Source of the DNA: an uncultured Streptococcus sp.
GTDB lineage: Bacteria > Bacillota > Bacilli > Lactobacillales > Streptococcaceae
Assembly (NCBI GenBank): GCA_963554405.1
Contig: CAUVRI010000002.1
Span: 27,319 to 91,318 of the forward strand
Direction of reading: 5' to 3'
Length of the DNA stretch: 64,000 nt
This document shows positions 1,081-40,773 of the stretch, piece by piece. The stretch's first letter is position 1; every line of letters begins with the position of its first letter. The notes below the pieces were generated by a model that ran no database searches, was not told the origin of the DNA, and was given only the letters and a program-made list of their open reading frames with translations. Position numbers and translations under genes: made by a program.

Positions 1081-1163
1081 TGTTTTAGGTTCAAAAGAAA
1101 TAGACTGAATAAGAAAGGTTCCATCAGATGTGACACTTATCCTATTTTAAAATACCCACTTTC

Positions 1164-1170
1164 ATGGTAG
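1164..1170. other. attL core (ATGGTAG)
   Basis: The same 7-mer lies at 40086-40092; this copy is ~55 bp beyond the int stop, next to the arm repeats. Confidence 0.65.
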
Positions 1171-1208: not shown

Positions 1209-1229
1209 TTGACTACGTTATTGACTACG
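1209..1229. promoter_or_regulatory. Integrase arm-type binding sites, left (TTGACTACG x2)
   Basis: TTGACTACG at 1209-1217 and 1221-1229; the same tandem with 12-bp period occurs at 39971-39989. Confidence 0.75.
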
Positions 1230-2349
1230 CTTCTAAAAATTTTAATAAGCGATCTGCAACATCTGACCGCTGTTTGTCATTTAAGTGCGTGTACATATCG
1301 AGAGTGGTTTGTATGTTTGAGTGACCCAACCTGTCCGATATGGTTTTAGGCTCTACACCAGCTTCAAAAAGTAAACTTGCGTGTGTGTGCCTTAGACTAT
1401 GCACACTAAATTGTTTTAATTTGTGCTTACCTAAAAAGTATCGCAGTTCATCCCGAAAATACGCAAAGTCGAAGTAACCGCCTTTGGTATTCGTAATAAC
1501 AATATTTTGGGGCTTGACACCATTTTTAAAGAATAGTTTCTTTTGCTCTAGCTTCCAGTTTTTTAAAATCTGTACCGTGCTATCGTCTAGCGAGATCGTT
1601 CGTGTACTACGTTTGGTTTTAGGTGATTGAGTGGATAACTTGCCATTGATTGTGACAAGTGTCTTGCTGACTGATATGGTCTTATTTTTAAAATCAATAT
1701 CAGACCATTCGAGTCCAAGCAATTCCCCTCGCCTCAAACCAGTATAGGCAAGTGTATGCCATGCAGTATACAAGACAGGTTTGGCATCTTTCTTTGCCAG
1801 CGTGAGAAATTTGTTTAATTCTTTTTTAGTGAGTGCTATCTTTTCTTTTCGTGGTTTCTGCTGCTTAGGTCGTATAATTCTATCTACTGGATTAGTCTGG
1901 ATAATGTCCAGATGCACGGCATACTTAAATACCCGATTGATGATTGATAGATAATTTAAGTAAGTCACATACTTCTTACTTAACTCTATAACAATCTTCT
2001 GCATCTTGGCCACAGACACGCTCTCTATTCTGATTTCCTTAAAATGATTCTCTATGATAGCATTGAGGTAATTCTTTGTATTTTGGTATGTCGTAGGCTT
2101 TACAGTTGTTTCATAGCTCTCTAACCACAGATCAGCTACCTCTTTAAACGTAGGCTTGCTAGAGTGATCTGTAAATCCATTCTCTTCCACAGAGAGTAGT
2201 AGCTCCCGTTCTGCTTTCTTAGCTTCTTTCTGCGTTTTAAACCCTCTACGGGTCGTTCGTTTTTGCTTGCCAGTAAACGGATCAACACCTAAATATGCTT
2301 GGAGCATATAGCGTGTTTCTCCGTCCTTTGTTAAATATTTCTTAATCAT
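1225..2349 (-). CDS. int: Tyrosine recombinase phage integrase
   Basis: N-terminal arm-binding domain; catalytic motifs TGLRRGE, HSLRHTHA and LGHSNIQTTLDMYTH. Confidence 0.97.
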   Translation of the reverse strand: MIKKYLTKDGETRYMLQAYLGVDPFTGKQKRTTRRGFKTQKEAKKAERELLLSVEENGFTDHSSKPTFKEVADLWLESYETTVKPTTYQNTKNYLNAIIENHFKEIRIESVSVAKMQKIVIELSKKYVTYLNYLSIINRVFKYAVHLDIIQTNPVDRIIRPKQQKPRKEKIALTKKELNKFLTLAKKDAKPVLYTAWHTLAYTGLRRGELLGLEWSDIDFKNKTISVSKTLVTINGKLSTQSPKTKRSTRTISLDDSTVQILKNWKLEQKKLFFKNGVKPQNIVITNTKGGYFDFAYFRDELRYFLGKHKLKQFSVHSLRHTHASLLFEAGVEPKTISDRLGHSNIQTTLDMYTHLNDKQRSDVADRLLKFLEA

Positions 2350-35978: not shown

Positions 35979-36263
35979 ATGATCCACTTTACACCAGAGG
36001 ATATCAGTATGATGGTAGGTTTTGTTGGTATTCTCCTTGGAATTTATGGCAATTTTAAAGGAAGTGTCGTGGCGCAAGAAAAGCGCATGGTAGTCTTGGA
36101 AAAAGATATCGAAACTATGCGTGACTTTCGCCTAACAGCAGTTAGACGACTTGATAACCACGATGAACAGAATAAGTCTCTATTGATCCTCGCAGAGCAG
36201 GTCAAAGCCTTGAGCGAGGATATGAAGGAACTTAAAGCATTAATTCAAAACAAAAATAATTAA
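35979..36263 (+). CDS. Lysis-module membrane protein (one TM helix plus coiled coil)
   Basis: N-terminal TM helix; directly before the holin. Confidence 0.7.
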   Translation: MIHFTPEDISMMVGFVGILLGIYGNFKGSVVAQEKRMVVLEKDIETMRDFRLTAVRRLDNHDEQNKSLLILAEQVKALSEDMKELKALIQNKNN

Positions 36264-36274
36264 GAGGTAACACT

Positions 36275-36535
36275 ATGAAAATCAACTGGAATGTACGTTT
36301 GAAAAATAAAAACTTTTGGCTTGCTCTTGTGCCAGCCTTGGCCTTGCTATTCCAAGCTTTTGCTGACATTTTTGGCATCAAATTGGAGTTTGGCCAAACG
36401 ATTGATAAAGTCCTTGTATTTATCAATGTACTATTTGCCTTTCTTGTTCTTGTAGGGATTGTTAACGACCCTACAACATCAGGATTGAGTGATAGCACAC
36501 GAGCGCTTGACTACGATGAGCCAAACGCTGATTAA
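36275..36535 (+). CDS. Holin, phiLC3 family
   Basis: MKINWNVRLKNK.FW...GIV.DPTT.GL.DS. Confidence 0.93.
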   Translation: MKINWNVRLKNKNFWLALVPALALLFQAFADIFGIKLEFGQTIDKVLVFINVLFAFLVLVGIVNDPTTSGLSDSTRALDYDEPNAD

Positions 36536-36620
36536 GAAGCTAATTCTTAAAGCAACAATCTTTTTACTAGCCACTGCCTTTTTCTGGGTGGTGGCTTTTG
36601 ACTTTAGAAAGGAGCAATAA

Positions 36621-37376
36621 ATGGCTACTTTAAATGACATTTTAGGATATGCAGAAAGCCTGGCTAACCAAGGTATCGGAGCTGATGCGGATGGAGCATA
36701 TGGAACGCAGTGTGTCGATCTTCCAAACTCTATCTCTATCAACTTCTTTGGTAAGGCTCTTTGGGGCAATGCTATTGATCTACTCAATTCTGCCCGTGAT
36801 TTAGGTTATGAGGTGGAATACAACCAAGAGGGCAACGTAAACAGCAGACCACGAGCTGGGGCGGTATTTGTCCAAGAGACGATCTATCTATATGGTCACC
36901 CATACGGCCACACAGGCCTAGTGATTTTAGATAGTGATGGATATACCATGCGTACTATCGAGCAAAATATTGACGGTAACGCTGATTGCCTCTATGTTGG
37001 AGGCCCTGCACGATATAACACCCGTGATTTCACGGGCATTGTAGGCTGGTTCTACTTCCCTGTAGATGACCAACCAGCGCAAGTGAGTGCTATCGAGCCG
37101 TCAGAACCTCTTACAGTCGATTCTAGCGAATTTAACGAGGAAACTGGCACATTTACAGTCGAAGTATCGGCTCTTAATGTACGGTCTTCTGCTGGGCTTG
37201 CTGGTGAGATTGTGGCAGTTTATACCGCTGACCAAGAAATCAATTACGATGGTTGGTTAGATAACGATGGATATATCTGGATCACGTACATTGGAGCTTC
37301 TGGAAATCGTCGCTATGTGGCAGTAGGTCAATCGCAGAATGGTAAACGCATCACAGACTTTGGCTCATTCGCTTAA
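36621..37376 (+). CDS. Endolysin (CHAP plus SH3_5)
   Basis: DGAYGTQCVD, YGHTGLV and IEQN motifs; C-terminal LNVR...YDGW...GYIWITY...G.RRYVA. Confidence 0.93.
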   Translation: MATLNDILGYAESLANQGIGADADGAYGTQCVDLPNSISINFFGKALWGNAIDLLNSARDLGYEVEYNQEGNVNSRPRAGAVFVQETIYLYGHPYGHTGLVILDSDGYTMRTIEQNIDGNADCLYVGGPARYNTRDFTGIVGWFYFPVDDQPAQVSAIEPSEPLTVDSSEFNEETGTFTVEVSALNVRSSAGLAGEIVAVYTADQEINYDGWLDNDGYIWITYIGASGNRRYVAVGQSQNGKRITDFGSFA

Positions 37377-37391
37377 AATAAGGAGGATTTA

Positions 37392-37859
37392 ATGGCACTA
37401 TTAAATTCTACGAATCTAAAGCAATTTGAAGGAGGGGCAATCGTCAAGCAAGGCGACTCTGCCTCTCTTTTTGGGTATGAGTTGTTGGATGAAAATATGC
37501 ATCCAATCAGTGATTTAAATGGCAAAAATGCTACAATCAGGATCTTTAATCAAAAAGGAAAGGCTACATTTGAGAGTACAGTAGAGAAATCAAAAGTTAC
37601 TTTTAAAATCGAAAAGGCATTGCCGATTGGATCATATCTCGTTGAAGTCGTTTGTGATGGGTATATTTTTCCAAGCGATCGCTCAACACGTTTGGATATC
37701 ACTCGTTCAGCGGACGATTTCACAAGCGAAGAAGTCCTATCACTTGTTAAAAATGATGTTAAAACTGAAATTGACAAGTATATCGCTGAACATCCAAACG
37801 GATCACAAACGGAAGAGCTGCCAGACCTAACAGTACTATACAATCTTGCAAAAATTTAG
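37392..37859 (+). CDS. Post-lysin protein A (BppU-N-like anchor; C-terminal DLxxLYNxAK motif)
   Basis: KQGD...F.YELLD and G.Y.VEV...GYIFPS motifs. Confidence 0.65.
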   Translation: MALLNSTNLKQFEGGAIVKQGDSASLFGYELLDENMHPISDLNGKNATIRIFNQKGKATFESTVEKSKVTFKIEKALPIGSYLVEVVCDGYIFPSDRSTRLDITRSADDFTSEEVLSLVKNDVKTEIDKYIAEHPNGSQTEELPDLTVLYNLAKI

Positions 37860-37871
37860 AGAGGAAAAATT

Positions 37872-38219
37872 ATGACTTTAAATACTGAAAAATTAACATC
37901 ATTTGCTCAAGCTGTCGGTAGCGACATCAAGGAAATTAAAACCACACTTGCAAGCAAAGCCGACAAGTCAGAACTTGGACAAGCTGGAATCACACAACAA
38001 CAATTAGACACAGCTATTCAAGGGGTCAAAACAGCTATTTTAGGCGAGGGTGTCCCAGAAGAGCTGGACACACTCAAAGAAATCGCAGAAAAAATCCAAG
38101 CTGGCGGAAGCTCAGACAGTGCGATCGTGTCAAAAATGACGGAACTTGGCCAAAAAATCACGGATCTCGAAACTACTGATTTTGTACAAATCTACAATAG
38201 CGCCAAAAATAGTCTCTAA
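37872..38219 (+). CDS. Post-lysin protein B (fibre-segment-like)
   Basis: PEELDTLKEIA fibre motif; N-terminal KL..FAQAVG.DI and C-terminal DFVQIYNSAK. Confidence 0.65.
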   Translation: MTLNTEKLTSFAQAVGSDIKEIKTTLASKADKSELGQAGITQQQLDTAIQGVKTAILGEGVPEELDTLKEIAEKIQAGGSSDSAIVSKMTELGQKITDLETTDFVQIYNSAKNSL

Positions 38220-38232
38220 AAGGAGGCGCTAG

Positions 38233-39114
38233 ATGAACAAATTAAAAGAAGCGATCCAACAGATCGGTCGTGATATTGGAAACATCGAAGGCCAACAAGC
38301 GTCCTTATTGTCACAATCTAAGGCTTATGAACTCTTTCCAACTTATGCCACGTTGCAAAGCCAAATGACAAGCAACATCAAAGACAAGCATTTGGAACTT
38401 GGCTTGGATGCTTTGATTGATACCAAACTCCAAAACGGCGGTGATCCGTTTGTCACACGCTCGAAATTGCCAACGATTGACACAAGCCAACTTGCAAGCA
38501 AAAATGATCTGGAAGAGTTAAAGCGCTCAGTCGGATCTGGAAGTAGCAGCAACTCAGAGCTAAAAGGACAAGGCTTTCCATACAATCTAAACGCTGACAT
38601 CGGTACAATATATACCGATACGACAGCAAAAAACGGAGCGGTGAAGTGGATCAAAAAGACCGCTGGAACTGGCTCTAACGCTTGGTCTGTCTTGTTTGGT
38701 GATGTCAAACACAAGCCAAGAATTTCATCGAGTCAAAACAACGCTTACGTAGAATTTAGACGTATAAACTCCACGGTAGAGGTCGGCTTCGGTGGTCTAT
38801 CGTGGGGTTGGTTTGGGATCGTAAGACGAGGTGCGCCCAGCTACGTTCCTCAAGGTTCAGACCGTGAGCGTAACGTGGTGATTTTAAATGTTGGCGGTAT
38901 ACCCGTCGGTTTTCGTGCGACCAGCTCAAAACTGGGTATTATGACGAACGACAAGGGCAAGCGCCTTGGTACTTTTTATTTAGGCGGACCGGGTGACGGT
39001 AACCAGCTACGCTTACAATTTGACGATCCAGTCCCTACTGATCGAGATATCGGAGACTTGCGGTTTACAAATATGTCGTATACCACAGACGATCCTTGGC
39101 CAGAGACTATATAA
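38233..39114 (+). CDS. Post-lysin protein C (fibre tip / receptor-binding-like)
   Basis: N-terminal KL...IQQIG.DI; G.GFP...A..G..Y.D...NGA..WIK; beta-rich C-terminal domain. Confidence 0.65.
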   Translation: MNKLKEAIQQIGRDIGNIEGQQASLLSQSKAYELFPTYATLQSQMTSNIKDKHLELGLDALIDTKLQNGGDPFVTRSKLPTIDTSQLASKNDLEELKRSVGSGSSSNSELKGQGFPYNLNADIGTIYTDTTAKNGAVKWIKKTAGTGSNAWSVLFGDVKHKPRISSSQNNAYVEFRRINSTVEVGFGGLSWGWFGIVRRGAPSYVPQGSDRERNVVILNVGGIPVGFRATSSKLGIMTNDKGKRLGTFYLGGPGDGNQLRLQFDDPVPTDRDIGDLRFTNMSYTTDDPWPETI

Positions 39115-39124
39115 GATAACAACA

Positions 39125-39151
39125 GCGGTAGCATTATGCTACCGTTTTTTT
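39125..39151 (+). terminator. Terminator of the late operon
   Basis: GCGGTAGCA-TTA-TGCTACCGT plus T-run. Confidence 0.8.
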
Positions 39152-39320
39152 ATTTGTCTGAAACGTTAAAAGATAGCAGTATATTTTAAAATGTGATATA
39201 ATATAAGTGATAATCGAATACCATCACTAGAAAACCACCAACGGCAATTGGTGGTTTTTTGTGTTTATAACGGCAATTTCAAAGATTGTCTATTATAACG
39301 GCAATTATGCTGTTATTTAC

Positions 39321-39349
39321 TTGAAAAAAACGACCAACAGTGCTATAAT
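39321..39349 (+). promoter_or_regulatory. Sigma-A promoter of the large ncRNA
   Basis: TTGAAA, 17-bp spacer, TG-c-TATAAT. Confidence 0.85.
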
Positions 39350-39355
39350 AATTGT

Positions 39356-39937
39356 ACACGGATTTTAAACAATCTACTGAATAACCAAGTGTAGATAGGG
39401 CGACACCTTGCTTGGATTGTATACATAATTCCCGTTACGCTCTCCGTGAGATATTGCGGAGGGATAAGTAATTCTCTTTTGAGTAATTGAAAGAGATCAT
39501 GAAGTGTAAGAATATTGAGGGTGTATGCAGTATAGAGGTTGTGCGTAATTAGACCATTATCAGACGGTGGCGGTGACAATAGACGCTTTCAGTGAAAGAA
39601 TAATCTGGGTAGGCCTTTCGTAGCAGTAAGAACCGAACCAGAAATGCTAAATTAAACCGTTTTGCACTTGAGGTCGAGGGATCGACCAATAACACCAAAG
39701 ATAAGTACAAGTAGCCCAAAATGTGCAGATAAAACATTTGGATATGTTTATGCTAAAAATATATTTCTGAATGTCGGGTGAAAGTTGGACGTAACCAGTC
39801 GTGCCTAGTCATTTAATCGCTACGGAAGTTATAGGGTCGCTCCTTATGGCTCAGACCGTGGTAGGCTATCGGTCAATAAATTGCGTACAATCGAAGTAGA
39901 GCGAAGGCTCATTTAGTTGATTGTTTAAAGTTCGTGT
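39356..39937 (+). ncRNA. Large ornate ncRNA, ~582 nt (ROOL-like)
   Basis: 19-bp terminal helix 39356-39374/39919-39937; several long-range helices with G-U pairs; GNRA-capped hairpin; promoter immediately 5' and terminator immediately 3'; no credible ORF. Confidence 0.8.
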
Positions 39938-39966
39938 CCTTGCATTTAGCAAGGTTTTTTATTTTT
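39938..39966 (+). terminator. Terminator of the large ncRNA
   Basis: CCTTGC-ATTTA-GCAAGG plus TTTTTT. Confidence 0.8.
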
Positions 39967-39970
39967 GTCC

Positions 39971-39989
39971 GACTACGTAATTGACTACG
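39971..39989. promoter_or_regulatory. Integrase arm-type binding sites, right
   Basis: GACTACGtaaTTGACTACG, matching 1211-1229. Confidence 0.75.
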
Positions 39990-40085
39990 TTTTTATTTAT
40001 TTGAGCAATATATGACCGTACCTAAAATATAGTGAAATCAACTAACCACATCTAATGAATATCTAATAGAAAGTATTTTTTAATT

Positions 40086-40092
40086 ATGGTAG
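40086..40092. other. attR core (ATGGTAG)
   Basis: Matches 1164-1170; overlaps the extended -10 TGgTAGACT of the next host gene. Confidence 0.65.
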
Positions 40093-40128
40093 ACTAGAGG
40101 AAAGAAAACGTTCTCAAGGAGGTTGAAC

Positions 40129-40773
40129 ATGAAACGTAAATTATTGGTCACATCATTGACGATTCTTTCTGCCTGCACATTAATGGCTTGTAGTCACACT
40201 ACTAAAAAGGACACAGCAGCTTCTTCTACAAAAGAGAGTAGCAGCAAAGTCGAAAAGCAAACAAGCAGCTCTTCGTCAAAGGATACTTCCTCTACAAAGA
40301 AAAACACTTCCAGTCAAGAAACCAAGCGGATTGGAAATGCAGATTATGGATACATCGATATTCCAAGTAAATGGTTCAAGTTCACGGATATCGATGGGAC
40401 AGAAGCTGTCCAGTATACGGATGGGAGTGGCTATAATATCGTCACCTTGAACAGCTATACTAAAGAAAAGGCCAAAGTTCCTGCAGATATCGAGTTTAAT
40501 GCTGAATTTCTAGCTAAGAAACTGGCCGTAATGTGGCAAGATAACCAGGATGTTGGGAAGATGACGGGAGCGCGGACTAAAGTCTCAGGTCTGGATGCCT
40601 ACCAGCTTCAAATTGTCATGAAATCTGGTCAATACCTGATTACTTGGATCTTCCAGAAGGGTGAAAAAGTTTATACCATTTCTTTTGAAGGGGATGCAGA
40701 AACCTTGAAAACCTTTATCCCATACATTGAAAATACTTGGAGCCTAGATGGAACAGGCGCTGTAACGGATTAA
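40129..40773 (+). CDS. Lipoprotein of unknown function
   Basis: Lipobox LMAC, Ser/Thr/Lys-rich linker; AGGAGG RBS. Confidence 0.85.
   Translation: MKRKLLVTSLTILSACTLMACSHTTKKDTAASSTKESSSKVEKQTSSSSSKDTSSTKKNTSSQETKRIGNADYGYIDIPSKWFKFTDIDGTEAVQYTDGSGYNIVTLNSYTKEKAKVPADIEFNAEFLAKKLAVMWQDNQDVGKMTGARTKVSGLDAYQLQIVMKSGQYLITWIFQKGEKVYTISFEGDAETLKTFIPYIENTWSLDGTGAVTD

Follow-up and report, generated by a model that had tools for sequence, protein, structure and literature searches.

A ROOL RNA gene, very probably organised as a self-contained cassette, at the right end of a Streptococcus siphovirus prophage

In this study, we report that positions 39356-39937 of the plus strand of a 64-kb stretch of Streptococcus DNA (64,000 nt, referred to here as the window) hold a ROOL gene, which very probably forms a cassette of its own at the right end of a Streptococcus prophage of siphovirus type. 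The RNA belongs to an already described family, and the present copy is nothing new in kind. With the other members of the ROOL family (RF03087) it shares the length of ~580 nt, the conserved blocks, a multi-junction fold, a pseudoknot, a variable linker and the location in a prophage, but the streptococcal copy has no tRNA neighbours and forms a stand-alone promoter-terminator cassette beside attR. To our knowledge, ROOL is among the very few natural RNAs that build protein-free cages larger than the ribosome.

In published reports, ROOL is described from prophages and phages, often near tRNAs (Weinberg 2017, PMC5737381; Kretsch 2025, PMC12286853), and as assembling into RNA-only octamers or hexamers (PMC12286853; review PMC12990946). 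The env-120 ROOL was solved as an octamer (Kretsch 2025, PMC12286853), the E. faecalis RNA was reported as a tetramer and an octamer and the L. salivarius RNA as a hexamer, and the stoichiometry is described as varying with small structural changes (review PMC12990946). In the E. faecalis octamer, an L2-L13' bridge connects the protomers (review PMC12990946). A conserved kissing loop, earlier read from covariation as a tertiary contact, was found to be quaternary, and the disordered linker was placed inside the cage (Kretsch, PMC12286853). Three ROOL pseudoknots were reported in 2017. The L. salivarius RNA has been described as very abundant, constitutively so, stable and dispensable, its deletion having no clear phenotype (Cousin 2017, PMC5643018). 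Encapsulation has been proposed as the function of ROOL (PMC12286853). GOLLD also forms an RNA-only cage, its expression rises during phage lysis and its context is similar to that of ROOL (PMC12286853). Both are large ornate RNAs of phages or prophages, but GOLLD is unrelated to ROOL in sequence and fold. Both mentions of Streptococcus in the available text of Weinberg 2017 (PMC5737381) concern another motif and not ROOL. No published description of streptococcal phage ROOLs was found; supplements or the Rfam full alignment may list some.

An Rfam scan of the whole 64-kb window returned ROOL as the sole family above the gathering thresholds. The covariance match to RF03087 covered 39361-39930 of the plus strand (570 nt), spanned positions 1-574 of the 574 positions of the model, and, at 361 bits (E 8e-83), lay well above the gathering score of 99.1. 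GOLLD and group I/II introns gave no match at gathering scores in the same scan of the 64-kb window. The ends of the terminal helix lie 582 nt apart, in agreement with the ~580 nt of ROOL. The original prediction had offered two possibilities, a ROOL member or a new class of RNA, and had named the Rfam search as the means to decide; as the full model was matched far above the cut-off, the RNA is a ROOL member, and the new class is rejected. The host genome assembly (1.33 Mb in 63 contigs, 67.6% complete) contains one ROOL copy, which is this same match.

The RNA gene lies inside a complete 38.9-kb prophage of siphovirus type and is its last gene. The prophage carries genes for an integrase, an S24 repressor, terminase, portal, capsid, tape measure, Dit, Tal, holins and endolysin, and has host genes on both sides, lepA to the left and rpsP, rimM and trmD to the right. 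The integration site was located with the help of a related, prophage-free strain, the raw RNA reads of which (run X21) cover the host gene on the right and in 22 cases join window positions 1134-1163 directly to 40086 and onward; the 7-mer ATGGTAG found at both ends (Table 1) therefore delimits a prophage of ~38.9 kb. The same run, coming from a strain that lacks the prophage, is uninformative on ROOL expression. No att repeat emerged when repeats were sought from 12-nt seeds. The GACTACG repeats were also considered as the att core and were ruled out, since the empty site in X21 puts the core at ATGGTAG; the GACTACG pairs (1211-1229 and 39971-39989) are probably the arm-type integrase sites of attP. 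The 3' end of ROOL is located ~125 nt before the attR core and downstream of the lysis genes, and ARAGORN found no tRNA gene (0 in the 64-kb window). The phage gene set and the empty site with its 7-bp core thus confirm that the RNA is prophage-encoded, as had been proposed, and its position after the lysis module and beside attR, with no tRNA genes as neighbours, likewise agrees with the original prediction. Among the three phage ORFs that separate endolysin and ROOL, weak neck-like and tail-fibre-like matches were observed; the same trio precedes ROOL in six other loci (L013, L019, L024, L028, L038 and L039). At the opposite end of the prophage, the stretch between the lepA stop codon and attL (900-1100) was seen by eye to contain long inverted repeats and a terminator-like hairpin. 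It resembles a repeated extragenic element and has no Rfam family match.

Table 1. Features of the ROOL cassette and of the prophage that carries it (window coordinates)
Feature	Position	Strand	Remarks
attL core ATGGTAG	1164-1170	.	Empty site in prophage-free relative
Tyrosine integrase	1225-2349	-	PF00589, 1.8e-27; phrog_1, 3.2e-86
Lysis module: two holins and CHAP/SH3_5 endolysin (36621-37376)	35979-37376	+
Three phage ORFs (phrog_6487, phrog_4757, phrog_21909)	37392-39114	+	Between endolysin and ROOL
Predicted terminator of upstream phage ORF (38233-39114)	39124-39156	+	10-bp stem 39124-39146, then T-run
Small promoter-like and terminator module	39158-39262	+	Promoter-like sites 39158-39214; 14-bp terminator-like hairpin 39228-39261
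Two exact 13-nt direct repeats TATAACGGCAATT	39266-39278, 39294-39306	+	Upstream of -35; candidate regulator sites
Predicted sigma-70-type promoter TTGAAA-17-TGcTATAAT	39321-39349	+	11/12 consensus positions, TG extension
ROOL RNA	39356-39937	+	582 nt between terminal-helix ends; Rfam match, covariation, z = -5.58
Pseudoknot helix	39661-39667 with 39723-39729	+	Junction with 5' flank of variable linker
Hypervariable linker loop	39720-39773	+	Long loop of model; most variable stretch among near-identical homologues
Predicted intrinsic terminator	39938-39966	+	Stem 39938-39954, 6 bp, 4 G-C, then T-run
Paired GACTACG repeats, 12 nt apart	39971, 39983 (39971-39989)	+	Mirrored at 1211/1223 beside integrase gene
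attR core ATGGTAG	40086-40092	.	Empty site in prophage-free relative

The RNA had been described as a self-contained gene, and a consensus scan found both the promoter and the terminator at the places proposed for them. The predicted start, 7 nt past the -10 hexamer, falls on A39356, where the terminal helix begins; the 3' strand of this helix ends at 39937, one base ahead of the terminator stem. With a start near 39356, the first base of the transcript would pair with the last base before the terminator, and from these positions a primary transcript of ~600 nt with paired ends is expected. Among the relatives, a TATAAT hexamer was present at a fixed distance from ROOL in 31 of 31 rows of the near clade and the second clade, and the TGn extension of the -10 in 30 of these 31. 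A hairpin followed by a T-run was read by eye at the corresponding site downstream of the homologues, with differing stem sequences.

The stretch from the upstream ORF to the promoter contains two further terminator-like hairpins, at 39124-39146 and 39228-39261. The first belongs to the predicted upstream terminator, which insulates ROOL from the late and accessory genes. The second is part of the small module that follows it, possibly a short RNA or a remnant; a sequence resembling this module was also seen upstream of ROOL in L009, L018 and L040. Between this module and the -35, the TATAACGGCAATT boxes are, at up to 2 mismatches, the only two copies in the 64-kb window. Their core is kept at -63 and -91 in the window-like subclade, the PH15 subclade carries variant boxes, and a third, partial copy is found at -120, near 39240-39248, inside a hairpin. 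The boxes may be a regulator binding site. A role as repressor operators was considered and rejected: no additional copy was seen anywhere in the window, the repressor/cro region included. In the second streptococcal clade, an inverted copy of TATAACGGCAATT was observed downstream of ROOL (L004, L006, L032 and L041).

The fold of the plus strand was calculated at -180.5 kcal/mol (z = -5.58), and none of 100 shuffles was as good, compared with -125.3 kcal/mol (z = -1.68) for the minus strand, where 6 of 100 shuffles were as good. This strand-specific stability agrees with the argument, made earlier from G-U pairs, for a structured RNA on the plus strand. Each helix and hairpin of the original prediction, as well as its 7-bp 'kissing' pair, is complementary at the coordinates given for it. 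The terminal helix (39356-39382/39911-39937) is made up of 19 bp (17 Watson-Crick and two G-U pairs) plus 7 bp, and its 19-bp part is longer than in all 200 shuffles (longest 17, mean 12.3).

Homologues for the comparative analysis comprised PH15, Javan246, two genomes of the genus and 38 IMG/VR loci found via a 21-nt ROOL motif; full-length ROOL matches of 216-363 bits were obtained in 40 of 40 loci (the two genomes and the 38 IMG/VR loci). Support for helices was judged by RNAalifold together with explicit pair counts. On the 41-sequence alignment RNAalifold gave 102 pairs, and compensatory double changes were present at 84 of these. The structure proposed from the single sequence had 86.7% of its alignment cells paired, a value that none of 500 shuffles reached (75.9%); in a control with slid partners it was 36.5-47.7%. 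These figures overstate independence, ~28 of the 41 aligned sequences being close kin. The terminal helix had 91% of cells paired and double changes at 15 of 21 pairs, including the 5-6 bp that lie beyond the ends of the Rfam model. Covariation across the 41 homologues also supported, as proposed, the helix 39418-39426/39521-39529 (89% paired), the hairpin 39440-39463 (92%), the 12-bp helix 39539-39550/39879-39890 (91%) and the hairpin 39672-39687 (86%).

The 10-bp helix 39615-39624/39819-39828, which had been listed alongside these, did not hold up. Its two parts were paired in 64% and 81% of cells, its U-G pair was kept in only 5 of 40 sequences, and both strands are used in the RNAalifold structure of the 41 homologues by covarying local hairpins, for example at columns 574-576/608-610 (CG:26, AU:14) and columns 320-324/331-335. 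This helix is probably spurious; at best, it represents an alternative fold.

The 7-bp helix of the original prediction (Table 1, pseudoknot helix) gained in standing. A 2-column gap made it look weak in the fixed alignment, and a register-free test raised it to a covarying pseudoknot. Every clade examined has a complement of 5-11 bp here in differing sequences, with at least eight distinct complementary pairs, such as UUUGCAC/GUGCAGA, AUGCGC/GCGCAU, GUGCUCG/CGAGCAU, CUUGGCAG/CUGCCAAG and GAGUUGAGCCU/AGGCUCAGUUU. The mean best helix was 7.15, compared with 5.53 in shuffles (maximum of 200, 5.90). Since the helix crosses the helix 39557-39569/39693-39704, it is a pseudoknot of the family. For the pair between 39398-39404 and 39836-39842, proposed as a kissing contact, 7 bp are present in the near clade, where C/U changes opposite G leave the pairing intact; the other clades showed no register in common, and only about four of the bases lie in loops. 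By analogy with the solved cages, this pair, if real, is probably a bridge between subunits rather than an intrachain pseudoknot. Within the linker, at 39730-39760, close relatives were seen by eye to carry different short hairpins, the arms of which change together.

Compared with the Rfam model, the window RNA lacks one small hairpin (model positions ~445-459, a deletion of 10 columns after 39819), and its terminal helix is 5-6 bp longer than the model ends. The same hairpin is deleted in all sequences of the near clade and of the second clade, which are of streptococcal type, and is present in the ROOLs of tRNA islands. Being absent throughout the streptococcal clade, it is a lineage trait.

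Unannotated ROOLs, 86% identical over 97% of the query, are carried by Streptococcus phages PH15 (FM163528/NC_010945) and Javan246 (MK448884). As in the window, they come after the lysis genes and close to the right genome end; they differ from it in a variant -35 (TTGATT), variant leader boxes, another terminator stem and one additional small ORF past ROOL, before the genome ends. The stand-alone cassette was found in these two phages and in 24 viral contigs. The end of ROOL lies within 1.7 kb of the contig end in 19 of the 24 near-clade viral loci, and the endolysin is among the three nearest upstream ORFs on the same strand in 16 of 27 loci, being the nearest in 11. Just past the T-run the right flank diverges, with at least four flank types among the relatives, and in a foreign contig (X2) homology spans 39172 to 39972 and is broken at both points. 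These flank types and breakpoints indicate that the cassette moves between phages with different integration modules. X2 itself resembles DNA, or a longer molecule, from a different phage context.

Within the genus ROOL is rare, being present in 3 of 151 genomes with that of the window counted, and in named genomes 10 of 14 motif loci were ROOL. In five loci from Streptococcus genomes (including S. gingivalis, S. parasanguinis and S. equinus) no tRNA was found within 700 nt, whereas all five ROOL loci of Clostridia MAGs lie among tRNAs. Of the viral ROOL loci, 8 of 38 are in tRNA arrays and 1 of 38 has a single tRNA. The tRNA-free arrangement is typical of the streptococcal clade. In a PH15-like contig (L027, 285-355), a single tRNA was observed ~470 nt past the ROOL 3' end; this may be the host attachment tRNA of that phage.

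Traces of expression were sought in public sequencing data, in which no run contained half of the words sampled from the stretch. Four runs were compared with window positions 38600-40600. A metatranscriptome (X1) contained one 328-nt contig, at 39398-39725, and a wastewater 'RNA-Seq' run (X4) contained four contigs, all within 39390-39886; no contig of either run fell on the 1.5 kb of ROOL flanks. These contigs come from two studies of low depth and from relatives of the prophage, and show neither ends nor strand. The pattern hints at a stable ROOL transcript that outlasts its neighbours, and would also be produced by DNA carry-over, which is possible.

Phage morons are autonomous promoter-gene-terminator units in temperate phages. 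They have their own promoter and terminator and are inserted between functional modules; the ROOL cassette has a predicted promoter and terminator of its own, conserved in relatives, is likewise insulated between the lysis module and att, and is exchanged among phages with different integration modules. It differs from them in its product, which is a large structured RNA and not a protein. Read in order, the cassette would open with an insulator terminator and a conserved leader that bears both TATAACGGCAATT boxes; the extended -10 promoter, the RNA itself and its intrinsic terminator would follow. A primary transcript of the expected length would start near 39356, as suggested by the solved relatives. 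Since this RNA is of the same family as the solved ROOLs, the same monomer architecture and self-assembly are expected, and by this analogy the transcript likely folds into a flat ROOL monomer that self-assembles, free of protein, into a hollow hexameric or octameric cage. On balance, we favour transcription that is independent of the late operon and probably also occurs from the resident prophage, as with a moron; this reading comes from the promoter and the insulation. As to function, our best guess, a tentative one, is that the cage sequesters or encloses a host or phage macromolecule in the conflict between phage and host. On this view, the gene would be a moron, and its product a cage RNA that is transcribed independently and assembles by itself.

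The main competing account, which we hold possible but do not favour, is that ROOL serves the lytic cycle, is made mainly after induction or infection, and aids phage gene expression or counters a host response. It draws on GOLLD, an RNA of similar context for which increased expression during phage lysis has been reported (PMC12286853), and on other ROOLs that lie within tRNA arrays on large phage contigs, a location suggestive of a part in phage translation. Moreover, the RNA lies on the same strand as the late genes and just downstream of them, and the conserved boxes upstream of its promoter could confer inducibility. Against this stand the two terminators that separate ROOL from the late genes, a near-consensus promoter of its own, the slot beside attR, and the constitutive abundance reported for the L. 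salivarius RNA (PMC5643018).

That the sequence is a decaying, non-functional relic of a ROOL gene is very improbable. The missing model hairpin and the rarity of ROOL in the genus (3 of 151 genomes, including that of the window) could be taken in its favour, but the whole model is matched at 361 bits, loss of the hairpin is common to the whole streptococcal clade, promoter and terminator are conserved among relatives, compensatory changes are seen within the clade, and RNA-type libraries contain contigs of ROOL only. The view that this is an intron, a ribozyme or an ornate RNA of a new class, merely resembling ROOL, has only size and complexity in its favour and is practically dismissed by the end-to-end match to ROOL and by the lack of any other Rfam family at gathering score in the window. 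Equally negligible is the view that small proteins are encoded here: two ORFs on the minus strand (78 and 62 aa) overlap ROOL, and a 'hypothetical protein' is annotated in some phage records, but no ORF in ROOL is conserved among the 41 homologues, in which the longest ORFs (23-88 aa) differ in strand, place and length, the 62-aa minus-strand ORF of the window is lost in close relatives, conservation tracks base pairing, and the PH15 and Javan246 records have no annotation here. The records with such an annotation are seven S. equinus phage records within PQ621708-PQ621717, where the 3' part of ROOL is matched over 240 nt and the 'hypothetical protein' coincides with this match. The annotation probably reflects an ORF called on top of a ROOL gene, and these records are accordingly flagged here.

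The identification of the window RNA as a ROOL gene in a cassette of its own also raises a wider suggestion, which we regard as speculative and rather unlikely: that the temperate phages of streptococci carry a distinct stand-alone ROOL subclass that is a regulated moron, with operator-like boxes, free of tRNAs, with one peripheral hairpin fewer, swapped among integrases and expressed from the prophage, and whose cage is advantageous. If this were true, the cage of the subclass would benefit either lysogen or phage, for instance through sequestration of a factor of the host or of a rival phage, and PH15, a cultured phage whose host is S. gordonii, would offer a clean system for the study of ROOL cage function. 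In small temperate Streptococcus phages, ROOL is thus available as a compact gene at a fixed end position, with a predicted promoter and terminator of its own and without a tRNA array, and, as this compact cassette occurs in a clade that includes a cultured phage, deletion, induction and superinfection tests would be simpler there than in tRNA islands.
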